The position numbers and the translations under genes were made by a program. Below the pieces are notes generated by a model. That model saw nothing but the letters and a program-made list of their open reading frames with translations, searched no databases and had not been told where the DNA came from. A stretch of DNA of 64,000 nucleotides from Candidatus Hadarchaeales archaeon. GTDB taxonomy: Archaea; Hadarchaeota; Hadarchaeia; Hadarchaeales; WYZ-LMO6. Below are positions 16,291 to 40,664 of the stretch, piece after piece; positions within the stretch are counted from its first letter, which is position 1, and each line of letters starts with the position of its first letter. Location: assembly GCA_038736355.1 (NCBI GenBank), contig JAVYML010000001.1, positions 180,908-244,907 on the forward strand. The letters are read 5' to 3'.

Positions 16291-16680
16291 GTGAGGGAGG
16301 AAACCCTAGAAGAGCTCGAAGAAGTGTTACGGGAGCTCAGGATGGAAATTCGGGATGGAACACCCATACTGGTGGAGGGGAGGAGGGATAGGGAGGCCCT
16401 TCTCTCCCTGGGTATCGAAGGGAGGATTGTACACCTGAACAGGAACGGGAGTTTGTTGGAACGGCTGGAGGGGTTGGGAGGATACGAGAGGGTGGTGGTG
16501 CTCACGGACTTCGACCGAGAGGGGGAGGAACTCGCTCTGAGATGTTCCAAATACCTCAGGTTAATGGGGGTGGAGCCCCTCCTCGAACCTAGGGAGAAAC
16601 TGAAGAAACTGCTGAGGAAGGAAGTGAAGGATGTGGAGGGAATGGTCCATCTCCTCCGGTTCCTACGCGAAAAGGGATGA
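16291..16680 (+). CDS. small Toprim-domain protein
   Basis: 129 aa; ILVEGRRDREAL...VVVLTDFDREGEEL is the Toprim E / DxD signature. Confidence 0.6.
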   Translation: MREETLEELEEVLRELRMEIRDGTPILVEGRRDREALLSLGIEGRIVHLNRNGSLLERLEGLGGYERVVVLTDFDREGEELALRCSKYLRLMGVEPLLEPREKLKKLLRKEVKDVEGMVHLLRFLREKG

Positions 16681-16683
16681 ACC

Positions 16684-17118
16684 TTGCCCCCCCTCTGGCT
16701 CTTCCCCCTCCTCTCAGCCTTCCCCTTCTTCGAGGGCAGGTACGCCCTTCCCCTCGCCATCCTCTGGGGTCTCTCCCCCCTCACCGCCTACTTCCTCTGC
16801 ACCCTTCCCAACCTAGCCGTCATCCCGGCCATCCTGCTTGCCCTGGAGAGGATGGTACCTCCCCTGAGGAGGAGGTGGGAATGGGTGGACAACTTCTTCA
16901 GGCTGATGGTCAGGAAAAAACTCAGGAAAAAGCACTTCCTCGCCCTCTTCACCTTCGTCTCCCTACCCCTTCCAGGAACCGGGGCCTACACCGGAACGAT
17001 CCTAGCCTTCATGCTCGGGATGAGGGGATGGAAACCCGCTCTCACCGTGGCCCTGGGAGTGCTCACTGCCAATGCCCTAACCGCCCTCCCCGCCACCGGT
17101 CTCTCCCTCTGGCTTTAA
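16684..17118 (+). CDS. small multidrug-export-like membrane protein (Sm_multidrug_ex family)
   Basis: 144 aa, 4 TM; conserved LPLPGTGAYTG motif. Confidence 0.55.
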   Translation: MPPLWLFPLLSAFPFFEGRYALPLAILWGLSPLTAYFLCTLPNLAVIPAILLALERMVPPLRRRWEWVDNFFRLMVRKKLRKKHFLALFTFVSLPLPGTGAYTGTILAFMLGMRGWKPALTVALGVLTANALTALPATGLSLWL

Positions 17119-18195
17119 CCTGCCCCTCCCGTACTTGTACTCGATGGCACAGGAACCCTCCGAAGAAACCATGCACGGTCCCACCGGGCTCCTGGGTGTA
17201 CAGACCTTCCCGAAGAGGGGACAATCGGGGGGATCGAGGAGACCCCTCAGCACCCTGTCGCACCTGCAGGAGGGATGGGGCTTGAACTCCCTTCCCTCCA
17301 GCTCCTTCAGCTCGTCCTCGTACCTCTTCCTGGCATCATACTCTTCGAATTCCTCCTTGAGGGCCATGCCAGACTTCGGAATCACGGGAAAGCCCCTCCA
17401 GTCCAGATCGAAGGGCTCGAAAACTTCCTCCATTACCCTGAGTGCCTTCACATTGCCCTCCGGTCTCACCGAGCGTGTGTATTCATTTTTGACCCCCACT
17501 TCCCCCTTTTGGATCATCCTCGCCAGGAGGTAAACCCCCATCAACAGGTCGAGGGGTTCGAAACCCGCCACCACCTGGGGGATTCCGTACTTCTCCGCTA
17601 TCTCCTCGTAGGGCTTGGTACCTATCACGGTGGAAACATGCCCCGGTTCTATCAGCCCCTGAATCTTGGTCTCACCCATCTCCAGGAGGGCCTTGATAGC
17701 CGGGGGGATGTAACGATGACAGCAAAGGATGGAGAAGTTAGGGGGAGGTCTTCGGAGGAGGGTGACGGCCGTGGAAGGGGCGGTGGTTTCGAAACCTATG
17801 GCCAAGAAAACCACCTCCTTCTTCGTTTTCTCCGCAAGTCCCACCGCATCCCTGATGCTGTAAACCACTCTCACCTCTGCCCCCTCTCCCCTGAGCCCCG
17901 CGAGCGAACCACTTTCCCCCGGCACTCCCACCATATCCCCAAAAGTTGCCACCACCTTTCCCTTCCTTGCCAGCAAGAGGGCCTCCTCTATCTCCCTCTG
18001 GGTGGTCACACAAACGGGACATCCTGGTCCCTGCCTTATCTTGATCCCACAGGGTTCCAGAAGGCGATCCAAACCGTACCTCACGAGGGTATCCTGGTGG
18101 GTCCCGCACACGTGCATCAGGAAGAGGTTCAACCCCATCTTCCTGAGTTCCCCCACGATCCTGCTCGCGGTCTCCCTATCCCTGAACCTGAACAT
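17077..18195 (-). CDS. hypD: [NiFe]-hydrogenase maturation factor HypD
   Basis: 372 aa; CGTHQ, GPGCPVCVT, C-terminal CxxC...CPVC motifs. Confidence 0.9.
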   Translation of the reverse strand: MFRFRDRETASRIVGELRKMGLNLFLMHVCGTHQDTLVRYGLDRLLEPCGIKIRQGPGCPVCVTTQREIEEALLLARKGKVVATFGDMVGVPGESGSLAGLRGEGAEVRVVYSIRDAVGLAEKTKKEVVFLAIGFETTAPSTAVTLLRRPPPNFSILCCHRYIPPAIKALLEMGETKIQGLIEPGHVSTVIGTKPYEEIAEKYGIPQVVAGFEPLDLLMGVYLLARMIQKGEVGVKNEYTRSVRPEGNVKALRVMEEVFEPFDLDWRGFPVIPKSGMALKEEFEEYDARKRYEDELKELEGREFKPHPSCRCDRVLRGLLDPPDCPLFGKVCTPRSPVGPCMVSSEGSCAIEYKYGRGRLKPEGETGGGEGG

Positions 18196-18197
18196 GC

Positions 18198-18416
18198 TCA
18201 GCCCTGCGAGAGGAGTTCCTGCCAGAGCCTCAGGCTCTCCCTCGCCTCCTCCTCGTCTAAGACTTGGATGGCAAAACCGGCATGGACGATCACGTACTGC
18301 CCCACCTCCACCTCCACGAGGGAGATGTCCACTTCCCTCAGGGTGCCATCCCCGAAGTCCACCTTGGCGAGCTCACCCTTCTTCTCCACCACCCTCGCCG
18401 GAATGGCCAGACACAT
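18198..18416 (-). CDS. hypC: [NiFe]-hydrogenase maturation factor HypC
   Basis: 72 aa; starts MCLAIP. Confidence 0.9.
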   Translation of the reverse strand: MCLAIPARVVEKKGELAKVDFGDGTLREVDISLVEVEVGQYVIVHAGFAIQVLDEEEARESLRLWQELLSQG

Positions 18417-18917
18417 CTACCTTCCCTCCCCTTCCCCGCATAAATCCCTCAGCACGAGGGAGAGGGTATCGGCCAGCCTCTCGGCCGCCTCCTCCAGCTC
18501 CCTGGTCATTCCTTCCCCGAAATCCGTATCCCCGGGCTGGACACAGAGGAGGGCCACTTTGCATCCCACCACTTCCCTCACGTATTCGCAGAAGATCCTG
18601 AGGGGGAGGAGATGCGTGGAAACGGTTTCTACGGGTAGCTCTTCCGAAGTCAAGAACCTGCTTTCCCCCGGTCTCAGCCCCAAGAGGGCTGCGTCCACGA
18701 GGAGGAGATGGCTGGGCCTGACCCTCTCCACCTCCTCCAAGAAATTCTCCGCCACCGTTTCGCATTCCAGCAATTCCACCCCCTTTCCCACCCTTCCTTC
18801 CATCTTCCTCACAACCTCCAGTCCCACCGCGTCGTCCTTTCTGAGGGGATTACCTATTCCCATCACCATGGCCTTTCTGCAACCCGCAAACCATTCCCTG
18901 AGCTCCCTCTCCATCAT
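18417..18917 (-). CDS. hydrogenase maturation endopeptidase (HycI/HyaD family)
   Basis: 166 aa; MGIGNPLRKDDAVG motif. Confidence 0.85.
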   Translation of the reverse strand: MMERELREWFAGCRKAMVMGIGNPLRKDDAVGLEVVRKMEGRVGKGVELLECETVAENFLEEVERVRPSHLLLVDAALLGLRPGESRFLTSEELPVETVSTHLLPLRIFCEYVREVVGCKVALLCVQPGDTDFGEGMTRELEEAAERLADTLSLVLRDLCGEGEGR

Positions 18918-18947
18918 AGAAGGGGGTAGGAAGGAAGGAAAAGACTT

Positions 18948-20405
18948 TCAGGGTCTCTTGAGGGTGTAAAGGAGGTTGCGGTCCTTATCGTAGATCTTTA
19001 CCTCTAGGGGCATCTTGCCCAGGGCGAAGTGGGTGGCACAGGCGTAGCAGGGATCGTAGGCCCTGAAGGCCATTTCAATCATGTTCAAGATCCCATCCGT
19101 GACCTTCCCTCCAGAAATGAGGGCCTTGGCAGCATCCCTTATGGACATGCAGATGGGAGCCACATTGTTGGTGGTGGCCACGATGAGGTTGGCCTTCTTG
19201 ATCAAACCTTCCTCCGTGAGTTGGTAGTGATGGTACAGGGTCCCCCTGGCCGCCTCCACTACCCCCACACCTTCCCCTGGAGTCCCCACCGGATTCCTCA
19301 CTTCCTTGCTGGTGATCTCAGGATCCTGGGCAAGCTCCAGTGCCCTCTCGCAGGCATAGAGGAGCTCTATCAGCCTGGCCCAGTGGAAGGCCAGGGTGGA
19401 GTGTACGGGTTTTCCTCCCAGCGTTTCGTACATCCTCTCGTACTCCTGCTGGGCAAGGGGTGTGGCCATCCCATCGGCGGCATTTAACCTTGCCAGTGGA
19501 CCCACTCTGTAAATACCGCTGTCGGGACCGTCCACCAATCCCTTCCACCCCACCTTCTTCAAGTAGGTGAACTTCACGTAAGTCCACTCCTCCACGTGCT
19601 CCCCTATCACATCCAGGTACTGGGATGGTGCAAACTTTACAAACTCCCTGCCATTGGGATCCACCACCCTGATCTTCCCGTCGTAGAAGTTCACGCGGTT
19701 CTTCTCATCGACCAATCCCATGTAGTAGGTCCTCAGGGTGTAGGCATCACTCTTTATCAGCTCCACGTATTTCTGGTTCTTCAAAACGACCTGATCGAAG
19801 ATCTGGAGGGCCTTTTGGGCAAAGTCCACGCAGGACCTGGCCATCTTCTCTATTTCCTTCCTCTCTTCCTCGCTCAAGGGTTTGCTCACCCCTCCGGGCA
19901 AGCCGCACACGGGATGGGTGGCCTTTCCACCCAGGATGGCCGTAATCCTCTGACCATAGGCCCTGTGTTTGATCACTTCCTTCCCCACTTCCAGCCCCAC
20001 CTTCTTGATCACTCCCAGGATGTTCCTCTCGGCCGGTGGAGCATCCGGACCCACCACGAAGTCTGGTCCCCCTAGATAGAAGAAGTGCAGGGTGTGGTCG
20101 TAGATGTAATAACCCGAATAGATCAGCTCCCTGAGCTTCTTGGCCGCGGGCGGCGGATCCACGTGGAAGGCTGCATCCAGGGCCTTCGTGGAGGCCATGT
20201 GGTGGGCCACCGGACAGACACCACAGATCCTGGAGGTGATTTGTGGCATCAGTTCCGCCCTTCTTCCCTCACAGAAACGCTCGAAGCCCCTCAGCTCTGG
20301 AACCTGGAGGTAAGCGTTTGCCACGTCACCCTTCTCGTCCAAGAAAATCGAGATCTTTCCGTGGCCTTCGAGTCTGGTGATGGGATCTATGGTGATGACC
20401 TTCAT
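18948..20405 (-). CDS. [NiFe]-hydrogenase large subunit (cytoplasmic group 3-like)
   Basis: 485 aa; N-terminal RLEGHGKI...RICGVCPVAHH; C-terminal DPCYACATH followed by a cleavable tail. Confidence 0.9.
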   Translation of the reverse strand: MKVITIDPITRLEGHGKISIFLDEKGDVANAYLQVPELRGFERFCEGRRAELMPQITSRICGVCPVAHHMASTKALDAAFHVDPPPAAKKLRELIYSGYYIYDHTLHFFYLGGPDFVVGPDAPPAERNILGVIKKVGLEVGKEVIKHRAYGQRITAILGGKATHPVCGLPGGVSKPLSEEERKEIEKMARSCVDFAQKALQIFDQVVLKNQKYVELIKSDAYTLRTYYMGLVDEKNRVNFYDGKIRVVDPNGREFVKFAPSQYLDVIGEHVEEWTYVKFTYLKKVGWKGLVDGPDSGIYRVGPLARLNAADGMATPLAQQEYERMYETLGGKPVHSTLAFHWARLIELLYACERALELAQDPEITSKEVRNPVGTPGEGVGVVEAARGTLYHHYQLTEEGLIKKANLIVATTNNVAPICMSIRDAAKALISGGKVTDGILNMIEMAFRAYDPCYACATHFALGKMPLEVKIYDKDRNLLYTLKRP

Positions 20406-21394
20406 TTCTTCTTCACCCTCCTTCCCAGCACGGAAGCCGGTAGGGTATACATGTAGAAGGTTCCCACGGGATCCACTATCTGATCCACCAACTTCTGGGG
20501 ATCATACCCTGCCTCTCTTTCCCCCTCCACCCCGAGAATGGAGGAAAGGGCGCTGATCATGGCCGCCCCCTGGTCAACCTCATTGGGGCAGGGACCATGG
20601 CATCCGGTGCACGGCATGTTGCCGTTTAAGCACCTGGCCTCGCACCCACCCCTAGTAGCCGGACCCATGCAGATGATACCCTGGGCGAGGAAACACTTCT
20701 CCGGATCCAGCTCTACCTCGTAAGGTCTTTTCACCTGAGAAATCGAGAGTTTCTCGGGCTTCGTCTTGTTCCTAGGACACTCATCACATACAGACTTCAG
20801 GGGAGCCAGTACCGACCCCCTCGGTGGGAGTTCACCCTTGGCTATGGCCTCCACCGCCTTCAGGATGAGGTTGGGAGGAGGCGGGCAACCGGGGAGGTAG
20901 TAATCTACCTCCACCGTTTGATCCAGGGTTTTGACCGTGTCGTAAAACTCCGGAAGCTTCAGCTCACCCTCCTTTACCCTGGTGGAAGTCTTGGGGACTA
21001 TTCGCTGGGGATTCTCGGTGGAGGGGGATTCCAGATAGGCCCTCGCAAAGATCTCCTCCCTGTCCGCCAAGTTGGCGAGACCAGGGACTCCTCCGGTGTA
21101 GGAACAGGCCCCAAAGGCCACCAACACCTTTGACTTTTTCCTGAGGAGCTTCGCCAGGTGCTCCTGCTCTTCCGTCCTCACAGCTCCGTTGAAGAAGCAA
21201 ACGTCTATGAAGCCATCGGGCATGGCTTCTACATCCTTGTACTTCACATCGAGGGCCACAGGCCAAAAGACGATGTCGGCCAACTCCACCACATCAAGAA
21301 TTTTTTCATCGATATCCAGAACCCCTATCTCACAACCCCCACAACTGGCCGCCCAGTAGAAGGCAAACTTCAATTTCTGCTTCGGCTTGGCCAT
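20402..21394 (-). CDS. [NiFe]-hydrogenase small subunit with extra C-terminal [4Fe-4S] region, no Tat signal (MvhG-like)
   Basis: 330 aa; FYWAASCGGCEI proximal cluster motif; C-terminal Cys-rich CDECP.../CMGPATRGGCEARCLNGNMPCTGCHGPCP. Confidence 0.85.
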   Translation of the reverse strand: MAKPKQKLKFAFYWAASCGGCEIGVLDIDEKILDVVELADIVFWPVALDVKYKDVEAMPDGFIDVCFFNGAVRTEEQEHLAKLLRKKSKVLVAFGACSYTGGVPGLANLADREEIFARAYLESPSTENPQRIVPKTSTRVKEGELKLPEFYDTVKTLDQTVEVDYYLPGCPPPPNLILKAVEAIAKGELPPRGSVLAPLKSVCDECPRNKTKPEKLSISQVKRPYEVELDPEKCFLAQGIICMGPATRGGCEARCLNGNMPCTGCHGPCPNEVDQGAAMISALSSILGVEGEREAGYDPQKLVDQIVDPVGTFYMYTLPASVLGRRVKKK

Positions 21395-22512: not shown

Positions 22513-24228
22513 ATGGTTACCTACAGTGACCGTCCATGGATTAAAATTTATGAGCAAATAGGTCTTCCCTATAAATTCGACTATCCCAAGATACCACTTT
22601 TCGAACTCATCGATCGGGCGGCTGCGGAGTATCCCGAAAGCAAAGCCATGGTGTACTTCGATAGGGAGTATACCTATGCCCAGTTGAAGTCCTACACGGA
22701 TCGGCTGGCCACGGCCCTTAGCAAGAAGATGGGGATAAAGAAGGGGGATGTGGTGGGAGTACAGCTCTTCAACTCTCCCCAGTTCATCATAGGAGTCTAC
22801 GGTTCCTTAAAGGCCGGGGCCATTGTAGCCCTCATGAGCCCCCTCCTCCCCACCCCGGAGTTGGAGTACGAGATCAGCACTTCTGGCGCTAGGGTGGTCA
22901 TTACCGACGAGTCCAGAGTGGAGGAAATAAAGGCCATGAAACACCGCACCAAGCTGGAACAAATCATTGTTACCTCCGTGAAGGATTTCTCTCCCTCGGA
23001 AGATCCCGTGCCTCCGAAGGTGGAAGGAGCCATCCAACTGCGCCAACTCCTCTCGGAAACGGAAGCGGACCCGCCCAAGCTGGAAATAGATCCGGTAGAA
23101 GATGTTGCCCTCCTCTTCTTCACCGGGGGTTCCACCGGCATTCCCAAGGGGGTGATGCTCACCCACTACAACCTCACCACCAACATCGTCCAAACCTTCG
23201 GTCCTACGGCGGCAGGTATGCTGGAACCGAACAAAGGAAACTTTTCGGTGATGGGATGTCTGCCCTTCTTCCACATTTATGGTTTCACTTGCGCCATGAA
23301 CGTGGCCCTTTATTGGGCGGGATGCCTCCTGCTCGTTCCCGATGCCAGAGATACGAAGATGATTTACGAGCTACTGGTAAAATACCGTCCCCTTTTGATG
23401 CCCGGGGTTCCTACCCAATTCATGAGGTTGCTCCAAGAAAAGAATGTGGACCTTTCCGAACTGAAGGGATGTGTACCCTATAGCGGTGCTGCTGCCCTTC
23501 CCCCAGAGGTTTCCAAACAATTTGAGGAGAAAGCGGGTGTATTGGTCAGCGAGGGTTATGGGCTTTCGGAAGCCAGTCCCGTCACCCATTCCAACTTCGT
23601 GGCCATCCTCAAGGGTGCGGGGATCGATCTTGGGTTACCGGTAAAGCTGGGATCCATAGGCATACCCGTGCCCGATACGGATGTTAAAATAGTGGACATA
23701 GAAACGGGGACGAAGGAAATGCCCGTGGGGGAGCCAGGGGAAATGATCATCAAAGGACCACAGATAATGAAGGGTTACTGGCCCACCCCGGGCAGTGGTT
23801 TAAGGGATGGATGGCTGTATACGGGGGATGTGGCGAAGATGGACGAAGATGGCTACTTCTACATCGTCGACCGCACGAAAGACATGATCAACGTCTCGGG
23901 TTTGAAGGTCTATGGAAGGGTGGTGGACGATGTTCTCTACGAACATCCGGCTGTGGCCAAGGCAGCTGCTGTGGGCATACCCGATCCCGAGCGCCCCGGA
24001 AGCGAAAGGGTGAAGGCCTTCATCGAACTAAAGGAAGGATACGAACCCAGCGAGGAGCTGAAGGAGGATATTCTCAGACATTGTAGGGAGAGGCTTCCGC
24101 CCTACGCCGTCCCCAAATTCATAGAATTCAGGAAGGAACTTCCCCTTACCGTTACAGAGAAGGTTTTCAAACGGAAGCTCAGGGAAGAAGAAATAGAGAA
24201 GATGAAGAAGGCTGGGCTCCTTAAGTAA
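22513..24228 (+). CDS. AMP-dependent acyl-CoA synthetase/ligase
   Basis: 571 aa; AMP-binding motif FFTGGSTGIPKGVMLTHYN, YGLSE, GWLYTGDV. TATA-like TTTTTTATAGGGG sits about 40 nt upstream. Confidence 0.9.
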   Translation: MVTYSDRPWIKIYEQIGLPYKFDYPKIPLFELIDRAAAEYPESKAMVYFDREYTYAQLKSYTDRLATALSKKMGIKKGDVVGVQLFNSPQFIIGVYGSLKAGAIVALMSPLLPTPELEYEISTSGARVVITDESRVEEIKAMKHRTKLEQIIVTSVKDFSPSEDPVPPKVEGAIQLRQLLSETEADPPKLEIDPVEDVALLFFTGGSTGIPKGVMLTHYNLTTNIVQTFGPTAAGMLEPNKGNFSVMGCLPFFHIYGFTCAMNVALYWAGCLLLVPDARDTKMIYELLVKYRPLLMPGVPTQFMRLLQEKNVDLSELKGCVPYSGAAALPPEVSKQFEEKAGVLVSEGYGLSEASPVTHSNFVAILKGAGIDLGLPVKLGSIGIPVPDTDVKIVDIETGTKEMPVGEPGEMIIKGPQIMKGYWPTPGSGLRDGWLYTGDVAKMDEDGYFYIVDRTKDMINVSGLKVYGRVVDDVLYEHPAVAKAAAVGIPDPERPGSERVKAFIELKEGYEPSEELKEDILRHCRERLPPYAVPKFIEFRKELPLTVTEKVFKRKLREEEIEKMKKAGLLK

Positions 24229-24246
24229 AAAAAGAAAGAAAAAAGT

Positions 24247-24818
24247 TCAAACGTATTCGTCCACGAAGATCGTTGGCACTTGTGAAGCGATCTTTCCCAT
24301 CTGTTGCGTCGCCTTGATGTACCTCATCACCTTGCTCATGTCTCCCTGGAGTTTCATCTTGCCAGTGAGCACCAGCTTGGTGGCATCGCTCTCGGCCTTC
24401 GCCAGCTTCTTCCAAGAATCGTAAGAACCTATCAGTTTGAAGCCCACCTGCACCTCGTTGGGATCCTTCAGCAGGCGCATACCCGTGCACTTCCCATCCT
24501 TGAGCCCGACGTACACATAGATGGTCTTCCCTTTCAGGTATTCCTTCATGACGGCCTTGAATTCCTCCTGGATTTTCTTGGCCTCCTCAAAGGTAATTCC
24601 TGCCTTTTCCGCGAGCTGCTTGATTTCCGCATCAGACATCGTTTCCGCCTTCTGCAACTTTTCCACGGGGACCTCGTCTATCTGGAAGATGAAATCTCCG
24701 TTCCATCCCACGCCCCATCCCTTGCCAGCCTCGGCCATTACCGGATCGCTGTTAAGTCTTTTGACATATTCCTCGTTCCAAGCTTGGGTTCCAAAAGCCA
24801 ACTTTGTCATTCTCATCC
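24247..24818 (-). CDS. SCP2 sterol-carrier-like domain protein (paralog A)
   Basis: Start taken at MRMTKLAFGTQAW (ATG 24818); the track ORF extends to 25077 through an unlikely His/Gly-rich extension. Shares GKGWGVGWNGDFIFQID...LTGKMKLQGDMSKVMRYIKATQ with paralog B. Confidence 0.6.
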
Positions 24819-24908
24819 CCCTTTTAGGCTTCCTACACCTCCATAAATACCCTTCGGGACTCCCCTCTGGAACTTCAAGGGAAAAAAGAAAAAAGGGAAA
24901 AACTATGT

Positions 24909-25406
24909 TTAGACCATCTCGTCCAAGAATTCCGTCGGAATCTGTGAAGCGATCTTTCCCATGAGCTGCGTCGCCTTGATGTACCTCATCACCTTGCTCA
25001 TGTCTCCCTGGAGTTTCATCTTGCCAGTGAGCACCAGCTTGGTGGCGTCTGCTTCTCCCTTCGCCAGCTTCTTCCAAGATTCATAGTCTCCTATTAGCTT
25101 GAAACCGGCTTGCACTTCGTTGGGATTCTTAATGACCTTCGCACCCGTACACTTCCCATCCTTCAGACCTATCCAAGTATATACCGTGGTACCAGAGACA
25201 TACTTCTCCATCATTTCCTTCATGTACTTCTTCAGATCCCCTTCGGGCAGTTGCTCTATTTTCTCCACTGGCACCTTGTCTATCTGGAAGATGAAATCTC
25301 CGTTCCATCCCACGCCCCATCCCTTGCCTGCTTCTTCCAGTTCTTTGCTCTCATTCAGTTTCTTGACATATTCCTCGAGCCATTCAGGTGTCGGAAAAGG
25401 TACCAT
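24909..25406 (-). CDS. SCP2 sterol-carrier-like domain protein (paralog B)
   Basis: 165 aa; two exactly identical DNA tracts of about 80 nt and 52 nt shared with paralog A (24305-24384 vs 24967-25046; 24676-24727 vs 25278-25328). Confidence 0.6.
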   Translation of the reverse strand: MVPFPTPEWLEEYVKKLNESKELEEAGKGWGVGWNGDFIFQIDKVPVEKIEQLPEGDLKKYMKEMMEKYVSGTTVYTWIGLKDGKCTGAKVIKNPNEVQAGFKLIGDYESWKKLAKGEADATKLVLTGKMKLQGDMSKVMRYIKATQLMGKIASQIPTEFLDEMV

Positions 25407-25469
25407 TCGTCCACCTCTTTTTTTGGTTTACACTTTTCTTTCAGTCCATCCTCTATAAAACCTTTCCCT

Positions 25470-26078
25470 TCAAACTTTCTCTTTAACCAAAAGTTTGGGA
25501 AGGAGTTTCATGAGGGGCGCAAGCCTCATCGCGTCTGCTACCTTACCTTCCACCTTGTATCTACCCATTAAAGCACCCCAGATGGGATCCACCTTTCCCG
25601 TCAGGAGCCCCATCAAATCCGCGGTAGAGGCAAAGACGGTGAGATCTGCCATCATCGCTCCCCTTCCACCCCCAGACAGTTTTCCCTCACTCACCTTGAA
25701 GTGACCAACCATGGGAGAATCCGTTGCTTTGAAGTTCACAATGAGAGTTTTCATTTCCTCTAGCTTTTTCCTGATCTCGGGATCCTCCTCAGCCAAAACC
25801 CCCAATCCTTCCCAAAGCACATCCAGAAATCTGGAGGAGGCTTGAGGTACTTCCCTCACAAAGCTCGCCAAATCCAGCGTTTCCATCTTCTCCACCATCT
25901 TGGAGAGGAGATCGGGAACGGCCCTCAGGAATTCCCTCACCCCTACGCTCTGAATGGTATCCATCAAAAAGGAAAGACTAGACTTCAGTTCTTCCTCTGA
26001 TAGAGTTAGGGCCCCTTCCACCACCGATCTGAGGTCCTCCCCCACTCTCTCCGATAGGATTAATTGGCGCCTCCTCAT
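25470..26078 (-). CDS. helical N-domain + C-terminal SCP2-like domain protein
   Basis: 202 aa; C-terminus GKLSGGGRGAMMADLTVFASTADLMGLLTGKVDPIWGALMGRYKVEGK is SCP2-like. Confidence 0.5.
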   Translation of the reverse strand: MRRRQLILSERVGEDLRSVVEGALTLSEEELKSSLSFLMDTIQSVGVREFLRAVPDLLSKMVEKMETLDLASFVREVPQASSRFLDVLWEGLGVLAEEDPEIRKKLEEMKTLIVNFKATDSPMVGHFKVSEGKLSGGGRGAMMADLTVFASTADLMGLLTGKVDPIWGALMGRYKVEGKVADAMRLAPLMKLLPKLLVKEKV

Positions 26079-27302
26079 TTTATCGTTGTGGAAAAAGGTA
26101 GATTGGGAGCCTCGCTGATGTATGCTGCCATCTTTGCCGGAGGGGGAATCATAGGTTCGCTTGCCTCCTCCTTTTTCCTCATGATGGAAGACCTAGGAAC
26201 CAATCCACTGGGAATGGGCTTTCTAGCCATCGCCCCCCTTTTGGGTCTTTCCCTGCTCGGTCTCTCCCTGATGCTCTGGTGGAAAAGACTCGTCACGAAA
26301 GAAGGTTTTGGAAGGATGGTGGCCTTGCTCATGGCTGGCACCGCCCTAGCTGGTCTCTCCTGCCCTCTAAAGAATTTCTGGCTCCTAGGAGCCTCCAGAA
26401 TCCTTCTCGGAACCTGCTCTATGGGACTCGTCCTCCTCCTCCTGGTGCTGAGCCTAGAGTGGTTCATGGAAAGACTCAACCTCATGGTACTCATGGGCAT
26501 CCTCTCCCTGCTCCTCGGCACACTCTTCTCATCCTTCTTTGGTTCCCTTATCACCCATCTGCTTGGAGGCTGGGAGAAACTCCCCCTCTTTTTGGGATTG
26601 CTCGCAGGGGGATGTTTTCTCCTCTGGCTCCTCCTCGGACCCTTCCTCCCTCCCCTCCCAGATGGGGGCCATACAACAACCGAAACCTTTCAAACCCTCA
26701 AGAATCCTTCCCTTTTCTATTCTTCCCTTATGCTCTACACCCTTCTGGCCTACCTGGGAGTCTTCTCCTTCATCTTCGTGAAACTTCCAGGGAGCTGGGA
26801 ACTGGCCCTTTTGAGTAAGGAGATGATCTTTTCCCTTCCCTTCTATTTGGCAGCGGCAGCCCACTCCCTTCTGGTGGTCCTCGCCTCTCCCCTCTTCCTC
26901 TCCCTCGCCTCCGAAAAGAAGAGGAGAAGATCCATGTGTCTGATCTCGGGCTTACTCTCACCCCTTTTCGGTCTCCTAACCTTCAACCTACCCTTTTCAG
27001 ATGGCTGGATGATCCTCATCCTAGAAAGCATAACGCTGGCCCTCCTCCAACTCTCCATCCTTCTCCCCCTCTGGATTCTCCTGTTGCAGGAACTGCCCGG
27101 CGTGAGTCTAGAAAACTTCATCCCCTCCATGGGCGGCATCCTTTTCCTTTCTGGAGCCATGGGGGGCTCAGCCACCCTAATCCTGGGATGGGCTCTTTTC
27201 CAAAGCTGGTCAACCTTTCGGATGGTGATCAACCTACTCGTCCTGAGCTGGGGGGCCAGCGCCCTAGGCGGATATTTCCTCACTAGGGAAGGAATAGAGT
27301 AA
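26064..27302 (+). CDS. polytopic membrane transporter (MFS-like)
   Basis: 412 aa, about 12 hydrophobic helices; the true start may be the internal MYAAIFAGGG. Confidence 0.5.
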   Translation: MAPPHFIVVEKGRLGASLMYAAIFAGGGIIGSLASSFFLMMEDLGTNPLGMGFLAIAPLLGLSLLGLSLMLWWKRLVTKEGFGRMVALLMAGTALAGLSCPLKNFWLLGASRILLGTCSMGLVLLLLVLSLEWFMERLNLMVLMGILSLLLGTLFSSFFGSLITHLLGGWEKLPLFLGLLAGGCFLLWLLLGPFLPPLPDGGHTTTETFQTLKNPSLFYSSLMLYTLLAYLGVFSFIFVKLPGSWELALLSKEMIFSLPFYLAAAAHSLLVVLASPLFLSLASEKKRRRSMCLISGLLSPLFGLLTFNLPFSDGWMILILESITLALLQLSILLPLWILLLQELPGVSLENFIPSMGGILFLSGAMGGSATLILGWALFQSWSTFRMVINLLVLSWGASALGGYFLTREGIE

Positions 27303-27334
27303 ACTTTTTTTTATCCCACCGCAAAGAAACTACG
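27303..27334 (+). promoter_or_regulatory. TATA-like box (TTTTTTTTTATCCC) immediately upstream of aor; the transcript is probably leaderless
   Basis: AT-rich hexamer run 20-30 nt before the ATG at 27335 in an otherwise GC-rich context. Confidence 0.4.
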
Positions 27335-29191
27335 TTGCCCGGATATATGGGGAAGCTCCTGAGGGTGGATCTCTCCCACGGAAAGATAGTGGAAGAAGAG
27401 GTCAAAGAAACTGAAGTGAGAAAGTTTTTGGGTTGCAGGGGTCTGGGGGCCCGCTATCTCTTCGAAGTCAGAAAGGGAGCAGATCCCCTGGGACCCGAGA
27501 ACAAACTCATTTTCATGACAGGTCTTCTCACGGGAACAGGCTTTCCTACCGCTGGAAGATACGATGTGGTTTCCAAATCTCCTCAGACGGGTTTTTACGG
27601 TCATGCCAACTCCGCCGGTTTTTGGGGAGTGGACTTCAAGCGCACGGGTTTCGATGGCATCATCTTTGAGGGGATTTCTCCTAACCCCGTCTACCTGTTC
27701 GTGGAGGACGGGAGGGCTGAACTGAGGGATGCCAAGCATCTTTGGGGCAAGGGTGTGCATGAAACCACCAGAATGTTGAAGGAGGAGCTGGGTGAGAGGG
27801 TCAACGTGGCAGCCATAGGGCCTGCGGGGGAGAACTTGGTCAGGTATGCTTCCATCCTCAACGATTACAACAGGGCCGCGGGGAGATGCGGCATGGGGAC
27901 AGTGATGGGCTCCAAAAAGCTCAAGGCCGTTGCCGTGAGGGGAACGAAAAAAGTGGAAGTGGCAGACCCAGACAGGTTGAAGGAGCTGACCAAGGAAGTC
28001 ATAGAGTTGGCCGGTCAAAACATGTTGAAGACCAGTCTGGAAACCTTTGGAACCAACTCGGGCTTCGATTTGGTAAACGCCATGGGTGGAATGCCCACGA
28101 GGAACTGGCAGGAAGGAGTCTTCCCCGCTGGGGAAAAGATCAACGGACCTGCCCTTTCCGACAAGGTCTTGGTGGGAACCAAAGGATGTTATGTCTGCCC
28201 CATCCATTGCGCCAGACTCTCGGAGGTGAAAAGTGGACCCTACGCCTGCAAGACGGAGGGACCGGAGTACGAATCGGTTGGGGCCTTGGGATCCATGTGC
28301 GGGGTGGATAGCATGGAAGCCATCACCTATGCCCACCACCTGTGCAACGATTATGGGATGGACACGATAAGCACGGGAAGCACGATCGCCTTCGCCATGG
28401 AATGTTTTGAGAAGGGCATCCTGACGAAGGAGGATACTGGCGGTTTGGAGCTGAGGTTCGGTGATGCCGATACCATGGTAAAACTGGTACACCTGATAGC
28501 CCGCAGGGAAGGAATAGGGAACCTTCTAGCCGAAGGAACGAAGAGGATGTCGGAGAAACTGGGGAAGGGATCGGAGAGGTTCGCCATGCACTCGAAGGGA
28601 CTGGAGTTCGCGGCCTATGATCCAAGGGCGGCCAAAATCGTGGGGCTCGCCTATGCCACCTCCAACAGGGGAGGATGCCACATCAATGCCTACGTCCAGC
28701 TTCAAGCCTTCATAGGAGCCCCACAGCCCCTGCTTCCCGAAGACATAAGAGAACCCTTCTTCGATCCCCTCTCGGAAGACCCCATTTTGGGAAGGGTGGT
28801 GAAGGAAACTGAGGATGCCTATGCCTTCGTGGAGGCACTTGGGATGTGCAAGTTTCTGGGCTGGATGATAACCGCCGACAAGGTGGTGGAAGCCGTGGTG
28901 GCTGCTACGGGATGGAAGGATTTCGATGAAAGGGAACTGAGGAGATGTGGGGAAAGGATCTACAACTTGGAGAGGATGTTCAACGTGAGGGAAGGTTTGA
29001 ACCGTTCCCACGATTCCCTACCCAAGCGGCTACTGGAAGAACCCCACCCCTCCGGACCGGCCGCTGGACAGGTGGTACATCTGGAGCCCATGCTCGATGC
29101 CTATTATCAATACCGTGGATGGGACAGGAACGGCATACCCACCAAGGAAAAGCTGGCGGAGCTCGACCTCCTAGACCTTCCGATGGCCTGA
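27335..29191 (+). CDS. aor: tungsten-containing aldehyde:ferredoxin oxidoreductase
   Basis: 618 aa; N-terminal MGKLLRVDLSHGKIVEEEV...FLGCRGLGARYLF, AOR_N plus catalytic domains with the pterin-binding motif region. Confidence 0.9.
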   Translation: MPGYMGKLLRVDLSHGKIVEEEVKETEVRKFLGCRGLGARYLFEVRKGADPLGPENKLIFMTGLLTGTGFPTAGRYDVVSKSPQTGFYGHANSAGFWGVDFKRTGFDGIIFEGISPNPVYLFVEDGRAELRDAKHLWGKGVHETTRMLKEELGERVNVAAIGPAGENLVRYASILNDYNRAAGRCGMGTVMGSKKLKAVAVRGTKKVEVADPDRLKELTKEVIELAGQNMLKTSLETFGTNSGFDLVNAMGGMPTRNWQEGVFPAGEKINGPALSDKVLVGTKGCYVCPIHCARLSEVKSGPYACKTEGPEYESVGALGSMCGVDSMEAITYAHHLCNDYGMDTISTGSTIAFAMECFEKGILTKEDTGGLELRFGDADTMVKLVHLIARREGIGNLLAEGTKRMSEKLGKGSERFAMHSKGLEFAAYDPRAAKIVGLAYATSNRGGCHINAYVQLQAFIGAPQPLLPEDIREPFFDPLSEDPILGRVVKETEDAYAFVEALGMCKFLGWMITADKVVEAVVAATGWKDFDERELRRCGERIYNLERMFNVREGLNRSHDSLPKRLLEEPHPSGPAAGQVVHLEPMLDAYYQYRGWDRNGIPTKEKLAELDLLDLPMA

Positions 29192-29200
29192 GGGAAGAGG

Positions 29201-31117
29201 ATGAATCCCTTTCCCGTTCTCTTTTCCCCTATTTCCATAGGTAGGATGGTGGTGAGGAATCGCATCGTGATGCCCGCCCTCACCACCGGCTATGCCTTTG
29301 GGGAGGTCACGGACCAGCTCAAGCACTATTTCGAGGCCAGGGCAAAGGGAGGAGCAGGTCTCATCGTGGTGGGAATAGCCGCCGTGGAAAAGGGAACGGA
29401 ATACGTGATCTCTGCCTCCGACGACTCCTACATCCCCGGTCTGAGGGAACTGGCGGAGACCATCCACGCCCACGGGGCCAAGACCGCCCTCCAGCTTTGG
29501 CATCCAGGAAGGTATGAGTTCGTGGAGATCACGGGGAGGGAACCCGTCTCTGCCTCCGACGTCCCTCCCCCCATCTTCAGTAGGGTGAAGCCCAGGGCCC
29601 TCACCGTTCCGGAAATCAAGAGGATAGAGGAGGAGTTCGCACAGGCGGCGGGGAGGGCGAAGGAAGCTGGCTTCGATGCGGTGGAATTCATAGGTTCAGC
29701 AGGCTATTTGATAAGCCAGTTCCTCTCCCCCGTCACCAACAGACGCACCGACGAATACGGTGGATCCTTGGAAAACAGGATGAGGTTCCTCCTCGAAATC
29801 GTGGAGCTGACCAAGGAAGTGGTGGGAAAGGACTTCCCGCTGATGTGCCGCCTCTCCGGGGACGAACTCATCCCGGGAGGGAATACGCTTTCCGAGATGA
29901 AAATAGTGGCCAGGAAGCTGGCGGAAGTGGGCATTTCCGCCATCAACGTTACCGCGGGATGGCATGAATCGAGGGTTCCCATGATCACCATGGAGGTCCC
30001 GAGGGGAGGATACGTGTACCTGGCGGAGGGTATCAAAGAAGCCCTGAAGGGAACGGAGGTGAGGGTGGCGGCCAGTAACCGCATCAACGAGCCCTTCCTA
30101 GCCGAAAGGATCCTGAGGGAGGGAAAGGCGGATTTGATCTCCATGGGAAGGGCACTGGTAGCCGATCCCGAGTTCCCCAGGAAGGCACAAGAGGGAAGGG
30201 TGGAGGACATCGTCACCTGCGTGGCCTGCTGTCAGGGTTGTTTCGACAGGCTCTTCGAGGGAAGGCCCCTAACGTGCATGGTCAACCCTGGTGTGGGAAG
30301 GGAGGCCGAAGTGAAGGTGGAACCGGCGGTCAAGAAGAAAAGGGTGCTGGTCGTGGGGGGAGGACCGGGAGGACTGAAGGTGGCGGAAATGGCCGCCCTC
30401 AGAGGCCATCAAGTCATCCTCTGCGAGGAAGATGGGGAGCTGGGAGGACAGCTCAACTTGGCTTCCATCACACCAGGAAGGGAGGAACTGGGAACGGTGG
30501 TAAGGGAACTGGCCCTCCATGCCAAGAAGGCTGGAGTGGAAATAAGGCTGAGAACGAAGGTGGATGCCGACATGGTGGAGGAAATAGAACCGGATGCCGT
30601 GGTATTGGCCACCGGTGCTCTGCCCATCGTTCCTTCTTTCCCCGGCGTTGACCTTCCCCACGTAGTACAGGCTTGGGAGGTTTTGAAGGGGAGGGAAGTG
30701 GGAAAGAGGGTGGTGGTAGTGGGAGGAGGAGGGGTGGGATGCTATACTGCCCATTACCTCTCTTCCAGGGGAAGGGAAGTGACTCTTCTGGAAATGCTGG
30801 AGAAAGTGGCTGGTGATGTTGGTATCACCACCCGTTGGATCCTGAGGGAGAACCTGAAGAAGGGAGGCGTGAGGATCTTCACTTCCACCAAAGTGAAGGA
30901 AATCCGCCCCGAAGGGGTGGTGGCCACGAGAGGGGAGGTGGAAGAGGTTTTCCCAGCGGACTCGGTGGTGCTGGCCGTGGGGTCCAGACCCAACTCGGGT
31001 TTGGTCGAGGAACTGAGGGACAAAGTGGAGGAACTTTACCTAGTGGGGGACTGCCTCCAACCCAGAAAGGCCTTGGATGCCATTCGCGAAGGGTGGGAGG
31101 TGGGTCTCAAGCTCTAG
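29201..31117 (+). CDS. Old-Yellow-Enzyme-like FMN oxidoreductase fused to FAD/NAD(P)-binding domain (2,4-dienoyl-CoA reductase / NADH oxidase family)
   Basis: 638 aa; OYE TIM-barrel N-terminus (FSPISIGRMVVRNRIVMPAL, HAHGAK..QLWHPGR); C-terminal dinucleotide motifs VLVVGGGPGGLKVAE and VVVVGGGGVGCYTA. Confidence 0.85.
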   Translation: MNPFPVLFSPISIGRMVVRNRIVMPALTTGYAFGEVTDQLKHYFEARAKGGAGLIVVGIAAVEKGTEYVISASDDSYIPGLRELAETIHAHGAKTALQLWHPGRYEFVEITGREPVSASDVPPPIFSRVKPRALTVPEIKRIEEEFAQAAGRAKEAGFDAVEFIGSAGYLISQFLSPVTNRRTDEYGGSLENRMRFLLEIVELTKEVVGKDFPLMCRLSGDELIPGGNTLSEMKIVARKLAEVGISAINVTAGWHESRVPMITMEVPRGGYVYLAEGIKEALKGTEVRVAASNRINEPFLAERILREGKADLISMGRALVADPEFPRKAQEGRVEDIVTCVACCQGCFDRLFEGRPLTCMVNPGVGREAEVKVEPAVKKKRVLVVGGGPGGLKVAEMAALRGHQVILCEEDGELGGQLNLASITPGREELGTVVRELALHAKKAGVEIRLRTKVDADMVEEIEPDAVVLATGALPIVPSFPGVDLPHVVQAWEVLKGREVGKRVVVVGGGGVGCYTAHYLSSRGREVTLLEMLEKVAGDVGITTRWILRENLKKGGVRIFTSTKVKEIRPEGVVATRGEVEEVFPADSVVLAVGSRPNSGLVEELRDKVEELYLVGDCLQPRKALDAIREGWEVGLKL

Positions 31118-32285
31118 CCCTCCCCACCTTCGAAAGAGCAGCGGAGAAAAGGGAAATCGCGCAGAAAATGGCTCCCAAGAAGAGGAAGGCTGGATCGTAA
31201 CCTCGCTTGGAAAGGGGACTGAAAAGGGCCACGGTGATCACGAGGCCTCCGAGGTTGCCCGAGGTGAGGATCACACCCGAAGCACCACCACTGTATTTGG
31301 GTCCTATCTCCGGCAGGAGGGGAGGATAGGCCAACAGGAGGGGAGGAACACCTCCCGCCATCACACCTCCCACGAACACCAGCAACCAAGTGGAAAAACC
31401 ATAGGCCTCAAGCCAAGCCAAGAAGAGGAGGGGGCCGGAGAGGAGGGAACAGAGAATGAGGAAGGCCCTGAACTTTCCCGTTCGGTCCGCCAGGGGAGGC
31501 CATATCAGGTTTCCCACCACCATTCCCACCACGGCAAGGGCGGAAAGGGCTCCTGCCTCCCCGGCCCCTACCCCAAAAACTTCCTGAACGGCGTGGGTCA
31601 AACCACCCGTGTAGGAAACGAAGGCTCCGAGGAAAAGGAACTGGGAAAAAGCGAGCAACCAGACGTTGCGACTCCTCATGGCGTGGGATAGGCTTTCCTT
31701 TAAAGGTACACCCCTATGCCCACCCGTGGGTGGTTCTCTCGCGAAGAAAAACCAGAAAAGGGAGGAGAAGAACATTCCCATTCCCGTACAGAAGAAGGCC
31801 CATCTCCAAGAGGGAAAGAGGGCACCCGTGAAGAGTCCCGCGGAGATTCCTAGCCCCATCGAACTCACGTATATTCCTGAGGCCGATCCCGTTTCCCCTT
31901 CGGGGAACCATTCCCCCACCATCTTGGGAAGGTTGGGTACCACCAAACCCATCGAAGCACCTACCAGAAAAGTTAGGAACCAGAGGAGGAGGAAACTCTG
32001 GGAAAGGGCCCTAGCCGTTGCCACCACCGAGCCCAGCAGGATGCCCGCGAGAACCGTTCTCCTCACCCCGAGCTTATCCCCCACTGCCCCTCCCGGTATG
32101 CTGCTCAAGGCTGCTGCCAGCGTAGGGGCGGTGAGGAGGAGGTAAAGGTGATCCGTGGAAAGGCCTAAGGAAGAGGAAAGCTCTTCCTCCAAGGGAGGAA
32201 GGATGTACCAGCTGTAGTTTACGAAGAAGATCAAAAGCCATGCCAGCGTTAGGATGACCCATCTGTATGGAGAGGCTTTCAACAT
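31107..32285 (-). CDS. MFS transporter
   Basis: 392 aa, 12 TM, MFS-like GDKLGVRR loop motif. Convergent 11-nt overlap with the upstream gene. Confidence 0.7.
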   Translation of the reverse strand: MLKASPYRWVILTLAWLLIFFVNYSWYILPPLEEELSSSLGLSTDHLYLLLTAPTLAAALSSIPGGAVGDKLGVRRTVLAGILLGSVVATARALSQSFLLLWFLTFLVGASMGLVVPNLPKMVGEWFPEGETGSASGIYVSSMGLGISAGLFTGALFPSWRWAFFCTGMGMFFSSLFWFFFAREPPTGGHRGVPLKESLSHAMRSRNVWLLAFSQFLFLGAFVSYTGGLTHAVQEVFGVGAGEAGALSALAVVGMVVGNLIWPPLADRTGKFRAFLILCSLLSGPLLFLAWLEAYGFSTWLLVFVGGVMAGGVPPLLLAYPPLLPEIGPKYSGGASGVILTSGNLGGLVITVALFSPLSKRGYDPAFLFLGAIFCAISLFSAALSKVGRARA

Positions 32286-36512: not shown

Positions 36513-36638
36513 GGTGGTTGGCGGCGTCCTGGAGTTCCCGTCCGCTTCCGCAGGACAGTACAGTCCAGATCGCTGGCGGGCTTAACTTCCGGGATCGAAC
36601 GAGACCGGGTGTTTCCCCGCCGCTATGGCCGCCAACCA
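36513..36638 (-). rRNA. rrf: 5S ribosomal RNA
   Basis: Minus strand GGTTGGCGGCCATAGCGGCGGGGAAACACCCGGTCTCGTTCGATCCCGGAAGTTAAGCCCGCCAGCG...GGACGCCGCCAACC; universal 5S loop-C/helix-III motif CCCGGAAGTTAAGCC and a complementary helix I. Confidence 0.85.
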
Positions 36639-40637: not shown

Positions 40638-40664
40638 CCGCTTTTCTTCCCTCTGGATTTAATT

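Follow-up and report, generated by a model that had tools for sequence, protein, structure and literature searches.

Putative SCP2-type lipid carriers linked to aldehyde and alcohol oxidation genes in a Hadarchaeal genome and in other anaerobes

The steps by which alkane-oxidizing archaea bring alkyl-CoM, or long-chain alcohols and aldehydes, to acyl-CoA are unresolved (PMC10811742, PMC11297162, PMC10322722), and aldehyde:ferredoxin oxidoreductase (AOR) and FadD have been put forward as enzymes that may convert alkyl-CoM into acyl-CoA, without genomic linkage. The question is raised again by a stretch of 64,000 nucleotides from a Candidatus Hadarchaeales archaeon (contig JAVYML010000001.1, positions 180,908 to 244,907; hereafter the window), in which a tungsten-type AOR and a FadD-like, AMP-forming acyl-CoA synthetase (ACS) lie in one neighborhood with dedicated, putative lipid carriers of the SCP2 family, in a lineage near the hexadecane oxidizers. 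The eight genes concerned (positions 22513-32285 of the window) encode ACS, three SCP2 proteins (SCP2a, SCP2b, and SCP2c), two MFS permeases (MFS1 and MFS2), AOR, and an OYE-type flavoenzyme, all belonging to known families. An annotation made from the letters of the window (the sequence-only reading) had proposed them as a candidate uptake, activation, and redox module for long-chain acids, enoyl/dienoyl-CoAs, and aldehydes. Comparative analysis revealed that a module of SCP2, alcohol dehydrogenase (ADH), and AOR genes is widespread in anaerobic archaea and bacteria, and it is suggested, with moderate confidence, that the window cluster serves, in a thermophilic Hadarchaeon host, as a feeder route in which carriers help to bring aliphatic aldehydes and acids of poor solubility to beta-oxidation.

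All eight genes were present in the open reading frame (ORF) listing at or very near the coordinates noted previously, and hidden Markov model (HMM) scans bore out the domain calls of the sequence-only reading, with the proposed PF00501, PF00724 plus PF07992, and PF02730/PF01314 domains all matched. The SCP2 calls also stood, as SCP2a (24909-25406, minus strand, 165 aa), SCP2b (24247-24801, minus strand, 184 aa), and SCP2c (25470-26045, minus strand, 191 aa) scored 42.2, 40.2, and 38.1 bits, respectively, against a PF02036 gathering score of 21.3. SCP2a and SCP2b shared 68% identity, the latter carrying an extra helical insertion of ~22 aa (alignment A1) and having an orthologue (P0014) in the JZ-2 Hadarchaeales metagenome-assembled genome (MAG). 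The SCP2c ORF extends to 26078 and its start is most likely the GTG at 26045, since homologues begin with MGEDL or MSEDL; the protein consists of a helical N-terminal part of ~95 aa and a C-terminal SCP2 domain (residues 96-191) that was related to the SCP2a family by hhalign (E 4.8e-5). Among the loci clustered, SCP2c was confined to those of the Cerberiarchaeaceae type (the window, L005/L013, L014, and L015).

The AlphaFold2 model of SCP2a (pLDDT 93.7) predicts an alpha/beta SCP2 fold, in agreement with the earlier domain call. A Foldseek comparison with the Protein Data Bank (PDB) placed the Thermus SCP2 structures 1WFR/2CX7 first (best E 7e-9, ~1e-8; target-normalized TM 0.75-0.80), and the 40 matches that followed were SCP2 domains without exception. 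In order, these further matches included UbiJ-SCP2, the yeast, insect, and human SCP2 proteins, the SCP2-like domain of MFE-2, A. fulgidus AF1534, and the SCP2 domains of alkylsulfatases, with a sequence identity between SCP2a and the solved structures of 10-22%. SCP2a was taken as the reference member of a subfamily of ~165 aa proteins recognized by the motifs WNGDFIFQ, LKDGKC, and GDMSKVMRY and by the invariant residues Trp9, Asn18, Gly36, Phe40, Leu81, Gly84, Cys86, Trp111, Leu132, and Gly134. An exhaustive profile search of 1.84 billion representatives gave 450 clusters of 50% identity at E<=1e-10, which points to a specific and moderately sized subfamily.

Two further observations concern the SCP2 genes. 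Cys86, within the LKDGKC motif, was invariant in 24/24 aligned members from Hadarchaeota to Asgard archaea. In addition, the G+C content of the window, ~0.55-0.59 elsewhere, fell to ~0.49-0.50 at 24001-26000, spanning the SCP2 genes (0.49-0.52 per gene), and at 44001-48000, spanning a gene (44648-47680) for a 1010-aa surface-type protein with NosD/beta-helix and Big_1 domains; these dips may reflect foreign origin or merely amino-acid composition.

The neighborhoods of the SCP2 subfamily were compared in a set of loci obtained by scanning one genome per species with alignment A2, using two peptide patterns that bias which SCP2 relatives were found, supplemented with metagenome contexts. Neighboring ORFs were clustered, representatives were annotated with Pfam, and partner presence was re-scored by tblastn. 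In 32/47 loci an iron-type ADH (Fe-ADH) was no more than 1 kb away from the SCP2 gene, in 30/47 an AOR was no more than 3.5 kb away, and in 12/47 an AMP-forming ACS was no more than 2 kb away, counts that are not independent samples because the loci are phylogenetically clustered (~15 are Syntrophia-like) and were found by pattern; several loci without a scored partner stop at contig edges. The subfamily's most conserved partner is an ADH, whereas the window cluster is without ADH and has AOR and ACS.

The linkage to alcohol and aldehyde oxidation holds across lineages with differing gene orders, and subfamily loci spanned Hadarchaeota, Bathyarchaeia, Methanoliparia, Halobacteria, Asgard archaea, Smithellaceae, and Cryosericota. 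With arrowheads giving the direction of transcription, the order was ACAD< SCP2> FeADH> ACS< AOR< thiolase< in Bathyarchaeia, ACAD< SCP2> ACS> in Bathyarchaeota BA2, AOR< FeADH< SCP2> in Ca. Methanolliviera, SCP2> FeADH> AOR> in a second Hadarchaeota lineage (L023), and AOR< DUF362< SCP2> FeADH> in Jordarchaeia and Freyarchaeota. The Halobacteria set comprised ACAD, CoA-transferase, SDR, SCP2, a zinc-type ADH (Zn-ADH), and ACS (ligase). Smithellaceae/Syntrophaceae, Cryosericota, Nitrospiraceae, Dehalococcoidales, and others had the order SCP2> FeADH> AOR> ThiS/MoaD> c6> ThiF, and bacterial SCP2 operons, including those of Smithellaceae, were often near patatin-like and alpha/beta hydrolases. 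The subfamily was present in Methanoliparia, Bathyarchaeota BA2, WYZ-LMO6, and an HD70 MAG; the SCP2 gene of Ca. Methanoliparum was not beside ADH or AOR, with thiolase, DUF35, SDR, and 3-hydroxyacyl-CoA dehydrogenase genes 6-8 kb off, and the SCP2 copies of Prometh- and Hodarchaeota had unrelated neighbors. The AORs adjoining SCP2 fell into two types with a mutual identity of just 37-42%.

Apparent gene fusions pointed the same way, each of which may also be a merged gene call: SCP2 with Fe-ADH (P0299, 717 aa), with the N-terminal domain of a Zn-ADH (P0321, 283 aa and probably truncated), and with a FAD oxidase of the VAO/cytokinin-dehydrogenase type (P0271, 621 aa). The SCP2-ACS-AOR link proposed from the window was therefore upheld, recurring in distant archaea and bacteria in different orders and accompanied by apparent ADH fusions. 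Furthermore, the operons of Cryosericum and a Smithellaceae MAG shared ~81% nucleotide identity only inside the operon limits (L037:9982-15311 versus L036 and L040; also L029-L050), indicating cross-phylum transfer of the SCP2-ADH-AOR operon as a block. The claim that SCP2 trios are unusual was overstated, as a Dehalococcoidales MAG carried three tandem subfamily copies (L048:8963-10408), with two ACS genes and an ABC transporter ahead of them and Fe-ADH and AOR behind, and several other loci had two copies.

A conserved gene of the bacterial operons, here denominated c6 (122 aa; L034:13825-14193 and 13 orthologues, alignment A3), lies between the MoaD-like and ThiF-like genes. Its N-terminus is hydrophobic and Lys-rich (MKFTFLLFILYLKLKK), it had no Pfam match, and its hhalign comparison with the C-terminal half of SCP2 was weak (probability 14%).

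The two enzymes of the window that recur beside SCP2 elsewhere were assigned as follows. AOR (27335-29191, plus strand, 618 aa) matched PF02730 (266 bits) and PF01314 (484 bits) almost end to end (AFOR_N 1-199/199, AFOR_C 2-385/385) and was closest to AOR sensu stricto, with 528 bits against the P. furiosus enzyme 1AOR and 529 bits against 9MQX compared to 374 for FOR, 291 for WOR5, 233 for BamB, and just 36.5 for the GAPOR_Arch model. Its translation contains GCYVCPIHC and GMCKF, which we take to match the CxxCxxxC...C pattern of the 4Fe-4S ligands in the P. furiosus AOR. ACS (22513-24228, plus strand, 571 aa; PF00501 298 bits, PF13193 70 bits) had long-chain-fatty-acid-CoA ligases as its ten best NCBIfam models, every one below its equivalog cut-off (best PRK06710, 433.9 bits versus 1116; FadD PRK08974, 327 bits versus 884), scores that would put it in the FadD-type family, short of establishing equivalence or chain length. 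The best PDB matches of ACS were fatty-acyl/feruloyl-CoA synthetase 8WEU/8WEV, 4-coumarate ligase, and A. fulgidus FadD-1 3G7S. By identity, both enzymes appear most similar to copies in Bathyarchaeial SCP2 clusters, AOR being 60-61% identical to the Bathyarchaeial AOR beside SCP2-ADH-ACS and ACS 52-57% identical to the SCP2-adjoining ACS of Bathyarchaeia (69% to the ACS of L018), which fits a published proposal that the host family acquired catabolic genes from Bathyarchaeia.

The OYE-type flavoenzyme (29201-31117, plus strand, 638 aa; PF00724 249 bits, PF07992 126 bits) combines an OYE FMN barrel, a CxxCxxxCx11C cluster motif, and a FAD/NAD(P) domain, and its CVACCQGC...C segment aligned with the 4Fe-4S cluster motif of FadH. 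Full-length scores were 413 bits for FadH (1PS9) and 411 bits for 2-naphthoyl-CoA reductase (NCR; 6QKG) compared to 175-194 bits for TMADH and histamine dehydrogenase, and the C-terminal domain aligned continuously with NCR and in two pieces with FadH. Tyr166 and His252 of FadH are kept and Glu164 is replaced by Ala (GSAGYLI versus GSEGYLI), all three residues being catalytic in E. coli FadH. Identity with FadH was rejected on the Glu164 replacement and the equal similarity to NCR, and identities with BaiCD (564 versus a cut-off of 825), mycofactocin OYE_2 (561 versus 793), and bilirubin reductase BilR (482 versus 750) were rejected on score. The protein was thus classed as an Fe-S flavoenzyme of the FadH/enoate-reductase type by sequence. 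Homologues with 51-68% identity occurred in Bathyarchaeia, Archaeoglobus (as 'NoxB'), Methanoliparia, and Nezhaarchaeota. No AOR or SCP2 gene was found near the homologues in A. fulgidus (L060) and on a Bathyarchaeia-like contig (L061), where the neighbors were unrelated, so the AOR-OYE adjacency appears to be lineage-specific.

The two permeases were less sharply defined. MFS1 (26118-27302, plus strand, ~394 aa; ORF from 26064) most likely starts at the ATG at 26118 and scored 32.8 bits for MFS_1 against a gathering score of 33.4, while its orthologues were pre-annotated as MFS_1 (PF07690); the polytopic transporter of the sequence-only reading thus stands as a divergent MFS protein whose own score falls just under the threshold. 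A crude hydropathy scan gave 10 hydrophobic segments for MFS1, two of them overlapping, and 9 for MFS2, compared to the ~12 transmembrane helices of the superfamily. MFS2 (31107-32285, minus strand, 392 aa; MFS_1 150.9 bits) had galactonate, phosphoglycerate, oxalate:formate, and aromatic-acid transporters as its best NCBIfam subfamilies, all far below their cut-offs, suggesting a permease of organic-anion type, and its gene is divergent from the PTH2 housekeeping gene in relatives.

The arrangement of the genes was read for transcription units. Same-strand gaps were 107 bp between SCP2b and SCP2a, 63 bp between SCP2a and SCP2c, 32 bp between MFS1 and AOR, and 9 bp between AOR and OYE; ACS and SCP2b converge across 18 bp, OYE and MFS2 converge with an 11-bp overlap, and SCP2c and MFS1 diverge from a 72-bp spacer (26046-26117). 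Only MFS1-AOR-OYE, with MFS1 as the first gene, looks like an operon. AT-rich promoter-like boxes or T-run terminators of their own were read by eye for ACS, the three SCP2 genes, and MFS2: a TTTTTATA promoter-like box 21-28 nt upstream of the ACS ATG, a T-run after the SCP2b stop codon and a TATTTAT box upstream of that gene (the SCP2a-SCP2b spacer holding, on the coding strand, a long T-run and then the TATTTAT box), and a TTTTATA box in the SCP2c-SCP2a spacer. The SCP2c/MFS1 spacer contains two AT-rich TATA-like boxes (GATAAAATG / AATTAATCC on the minus strand), kept in the two closest genomes (L005 and L014) and partly in L001. All these boxes are putative promoters, read from the sequence; a scan for sigma-70 promoters and intrinsic terminators, which is not applicable to archaea, gave counts at or below shuffled expectation.

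SCP2a homologues were archaeal (Hadarchaeales, Bathyarchaeia, Halobacteria, and Asgard), and the host was placed by collinearity. The window was collinear with a Hadesarchaea WYZ-LMO6 contig over 6.7 kb and with the MAGs JZ-2_bin146 and S1_Bin_384_1 over 20.5 kb each, all at ~80% nucleotide identity, which places the source organism with the WYZ-LMO6 / Ca. Cerberiarchaeaceae lineage, a close relative of the hexadecane oxidizers in culture. The GTDB family WYZ-LMO6 has been named Ca. Cerberiarchaeaceae and is the sole Hadarchaeota family for which Acr is reported together with complete beta-oxidation and the Wood-Ljungdahl pathway; fadD was also reported (PMC10811742). The family has been described as an alkane and fatty-acid oxidizer that, by a published proposal, took catabolic genes from Bathyarchaeia.

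The same gene order occurred in at least six other Hadarchaeales assemblies, so the arrangement is not a chance one-off, and the window, L013, and L014 shared the full layout ACS> <SCP2b <SCP2a <SCP2c MFS1> AOR> OYE> <MFS2. Several 'Candidatus Hadarchaeales archaeon' assemblies encoded an OYE protein 100% identical to that of the window (P0096) and kept the order MFS-AOR-OYE-MFS-PTH2-AIRS-HAD. The more distant MAG S4B3_HD70, whose name fits the naming pattern of MAGs from the hexadecane 70 °C culture, carried MFS1-SCP2c-SCP2a-ACS at a contig end and differed from the window beyond the adjacent pilin-like gene.

In the feeder route that we favor, SCP2a, SCP2b, and SCP2c, being small and soluble, would take a hydrophobic molecule, be it substrate or product, into their tunnel and shuttle it between the membrane and the soluble enzymes. 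The tungsten AOR would oxidize the aldehyde to the carboxylic acid, reducing ferredoxin, and the FadD-like synthetase would convert the acid to acyl-CoA that then enters beta-oxidation. The OYE-type flavoenzyme, presumably co-transcribed with AOR, may saturate the conjugated C=C bond of 2-enals, 2-enoates, or (di)enoyl-CoA, and the two MFS permeases may carry an anionic substrate or product across the membrane; the separately transcribed genes may in turn be co-regulated. Because the SCP2 subfamily adjoins an ADH in most other lineages, the general module may run from alcohol to aldehyde, acid, and acyl-CoA, the Hadarchaeal version having lost or never had the ADH and gained the reductase, permeases, and extra carriers.

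A number of observations weigh against this feeder route, besides the non-independence of the locus counts. The cluster reads as four to six predicted transcription units and not one, only MFS1-AOR-OYE being operon-like. Across the loci examined, OYE, MFS1, MFS2, and SCP2c accompany AOR in the Hadarchaeal WYZ-LMO6-type family only; of the proposed uptake, activation, and redox module, the SCP2-ACS-AOR linkage is thus the part that stands, and the OYE enzyme and both permeases are the part that does not extend beyond one family. Since the whole 20-kb region, including housekeeping genes, is collinear among close relatives, synteny inside the family says little alone. The PDB matches of the ACS include feruloyl- and coumaroyl-CoA ligases, so its substrate may differ in chain length or be other than aliphatic, and MFS permeases are not known as the usual importers of long-chain fatty acids. 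The terms 'long-chain' and 'dienoyl-CoA' in the sequence-only reading were guesses, given an ACS below the FadD equivalog cut-offs and an OYE enzyme equally near FadH and NCR, lacking Glu164, and reaching no equivalog cut-off. HMM scans of the 64-kb window found no beta-oxidation, thiolase/DUF35, or Acr gene, and no ADH was present there, Fe-ADH being absent by tblastn scoring. An absence of CoA-thioester enzymes elsewhere in the genome, which the sequence-only reading had regarded as a possible refutation, is nevertheless very unlikely, as the family is reported with complete beta-oxidation and Acr.

Among the explanations that compete with the feeder route, it is unlikely that the cluster consists of two unrelated adjacent units without a common pathway, MFS1-AOR-OYE (with MFS2) acting as a detoxification system or electron sink for reactive aldehydes and enals and SCP2 and ACS forming a separate lipid set. 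The separate transcription read from the sequence, the restriction of the OYE and MFS genes beside AOR to the WYZ-LMO6-type family, and the 20 kb of collinearity that renders adjacency among close relatives uninformative would all fit this explanation, as would the broad range of AOR enzymes, many copies of which in Asgard archaea are without an assigned role (PMC11291895). It is countered by the 30/47 loci with AOR beside SCP2, in many lineages, in different orders, and with two divergent AOR types; by the short, conserved SCP2c-MFS1 spacer of 72 bp; and by the survival of MFS1-SCP2c-SCP2a-ACS in the more distant S4B3_HD70, where the surroundings differ. Rather more doubtful is a role in aromatic or phenylpropanoid handling, in which compounds of the cinnamate, coumarate, or phenylacetaldehyde type would be imported and converted by an AOR acting on aromatic aldehydes, an ACS serving as aryl-acid-CoA ligase, an OYE-type enoate (cinnamate) or aryl-CoA reductase, and MFS2 as an aromatic-acid symporter. 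The feruloyl-CoA synthetase 8WEV and 4-coumarate ligases among the ACS matches, the full-length alignment of OYE with 2-naphthoyl-CoA reductase (6QKG, 411 bits), the weak matches of MFS2 to the aromatic-acid/H+ symporter, MhpT, and PcaK models, and the occurrence of the nearest ACS and AOR relatives in Bathyarchaeia are in its favor. However, the ten best ACS models were all fatty-acid ligases, the MFS2 matches were far under their cut-offs, the SCP2 genes of Bathyarchaeia and Halobacteria lie beside ACAD, thiolase, and CoA-transferase and not beside genes of the benzoyl-CoA pathway, and the SCP2 neighbors in Smithellaceae include patatin-like and alpha/beta hydrolases.

Enzymes of the AOR type can work in either direction, and the pair of AOR and ADH reduces acids to alcohols in other anaerobes. 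The cluster could accordingly be imagined to run in the reductive direction, AOR reducing fatty acids with reduced ferredoxin (e.g., from H2 or CO oxidation), OYE or ADH reducing the products further, and SCP2 carrying products of an electron sink or fatty alcohols. A [NiFe] hydrogenase lies 1-3 kb upstream of the cluster and the OYE partner belongs to a reductase family, but we consider this direction very unlikely, since the ACS in SCP2 neighborhoods, with ACAD and thiolase in Bathyarchaeia and Halobacteria, fits catabolism and the host family is described as oxidizing alkanes and fatty acids. ADH and AOR are also the known pair of ethanol oxidation. A short-chain module of the ethanol/acetaldehyde type, as in syntrophic ethanol oxidizers, would make SCP2 a non-lipid factor, e.g., for the assembly or docking of ADH and AOR; AOR has been proposed in published work for the C2 route in Ca. 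Ethanoperedens, and the lipid ligand of the SCP2 subfamily is our own proposal. Nevertheless, the close structural matches of SCP2a are all lipid binders, the window ACS resembles fatty-acid ligases and not acetate ligases, and the apparent fusion of SCP2 with three unrelated alcohol-oxidizing folds suggests substrate delivery and not assembly of one enzyme, leaving the short-chain module highly improbable.

A narrower version of the oxidative scheme would make the cluster the route that follows Acr, in which the alkyl group of hexadecyl-CoM is released as a fatty aldehyde, held by SCP2, oxidized to the acid by AOR, and converted by the ligase to acyl-CoA. The flavoenzyme adjacent to AOR would then cleave the C-S bond, as its distant relatives TMADH and histamine dehydrogenase cleave C-N bonds. 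There is little probability that this holds: many organisms that have the SCP2-ADH-AOR module are without Acr, the flavoenzyme stands much nearer to FadH and NCR than to TMADH, a permease at the head of the operon suggests an external substrate, and aor is expressed at a moderate level only in published data for Ca. Alkanophaga.

The feeder route has several known counterparts. Peroxisomes are known to employ SCP2 in lipid catabolism (SCPx and MFE-2), and eukaryotic proteins of the SCP2/SCPx, MFE-2, and HSDL2 types likewise couple an SCP2 module to dehydrogenases and to CoA-thioester enzymes that degrade fatty acids; dehydrogenase fusions were apparent in the window's SCP2 subfamily too. In contrast to the peroxisomal systems, the window carriers are free-standing, multi-copy, and prokaryotic, and the partners of their subfamily are Fe- or Zn-ADH, tungsten AOR, and AMP-forming ligase, not thiolase or hydratase. 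SCP2 domains are also known in the bacterial alkylsulfatases, where the domain probably draws in long aliphatic chains and the product is a fatty alcohol. The C-terminal SCP2-like domains of SdsA1 and Pisa1 were significant structural matches to SCP2a, whereas the window has no metallo-beta-lactamase sulfatase domain, a separate carrier, and an anaerobic context (AOR and ferredoxin). The AOR resembles that of P. furiosus by its full-length match to 1AOR and its putative Fe-S Cys motif. AOR operons with MoaD/ThiF-like maturation genes have their parallel in the bacterial SCP2 operons, which carry ThiS/MoaD- and ThiF-like genes after AOR; the Hadarchaeal AOR differs in sharing its putative operon with an MFS permease and an OYE-type reductase, with no MoaD/ThiF genes adjoining. 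The OYE-type enzyme has the same three-module architecture as FadH (1PS9), NCR (6QKG), and the clostridial enoate reductases.

The AOR/FadD route from alkyl-CoM to acyl-CoA proposed for Ca. Ethanoperedens, Ca. Cerberiarchaeum, and Ca. Methanoliparia involves the same host lineage and the same candidate enzymes, Aor and FadD, although the papers on it list the enzymes without genomic linkage and leave SCP2 carriers unmentioned. The SCP2-ADH-AOR module is not Acr-specific, because it is also found in Smithellaceae, Cryosericota, and Halobacteria, which are without Acr. No paper pairing SCP2 with aldehyde ferredoxin oxidoreductase was found in the open-access literature searched, and among the open-access matches listed SCP2 was not paired with Methanoliparia, Smithella, alkyl-CoM, or archaeal beta-oxidation.

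Elsewhere, the 64-kb window contains housekeeping genes, the [NiFe] hydrogenase, genes for pilin-like proteins, an RNR with an intein, and the like. The hydrogenase small (20402-21394, minus strand) and large (18948-20405, minus strand) subunit genes lie 1-3 kb upstream of the cluster; the large subunit gene is adjoined by an ORF of 564 aa on the opposite strand (17275-18969) with no Pfam match, in place of which the relative L005 has HycI, HypC, and HypD after the hydrogenase. A flavin reductase-rubredoxin fusion followed by an ODP-type metallo-beta-lactamase-fold protein (10442-12315, plus strand) looks like an oxygen or nitric-oxide detoxification pair of an anaerobe. An intein that carries a LAGLIDADG homing-endonuclease domain splits the RNR large subunit (57168-60191, minus strand, 1007 aa). 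A 5S rRNA gene standing by itself was identified at 36516-36636 (minus strand), and an 88-nt tRNA-like match (38173-38260, minus strand; Rfam 56.6 bits, no ARAGORN call) may be an archaeal tRNA that has an intron or is atypical in another way. Sizeable ORFs at 40110-41513 (plus strand), 12312-12779, 16677-17285, and 43987-44373 had no Pfam match, of which the first (467 aa) overlaps a minus-strand ORF of 136 aa (41426-41836) and may be no real gene.

For the organism, the cluster offers a defined set of genes, amenable to experiment, from a lineage of alkane oxidizers. More widely, the comparison reveals an SCP2 family as a widespread companion of ADHs and AORs in anaerobes, sometimes apparently fused to a dehydrogenase, of which no description was found in the open-access literature searched. 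Judging by its recurrence beside such enzymes in distant anaerobes, this family probably serves to pass oily aldehydes and acids on to fatty-acid degradation. The result suggests that, in anaerobes as in peroxisomes, SCP2 carriers overcome the poor solubility of fatty alcohols and aldehydes.

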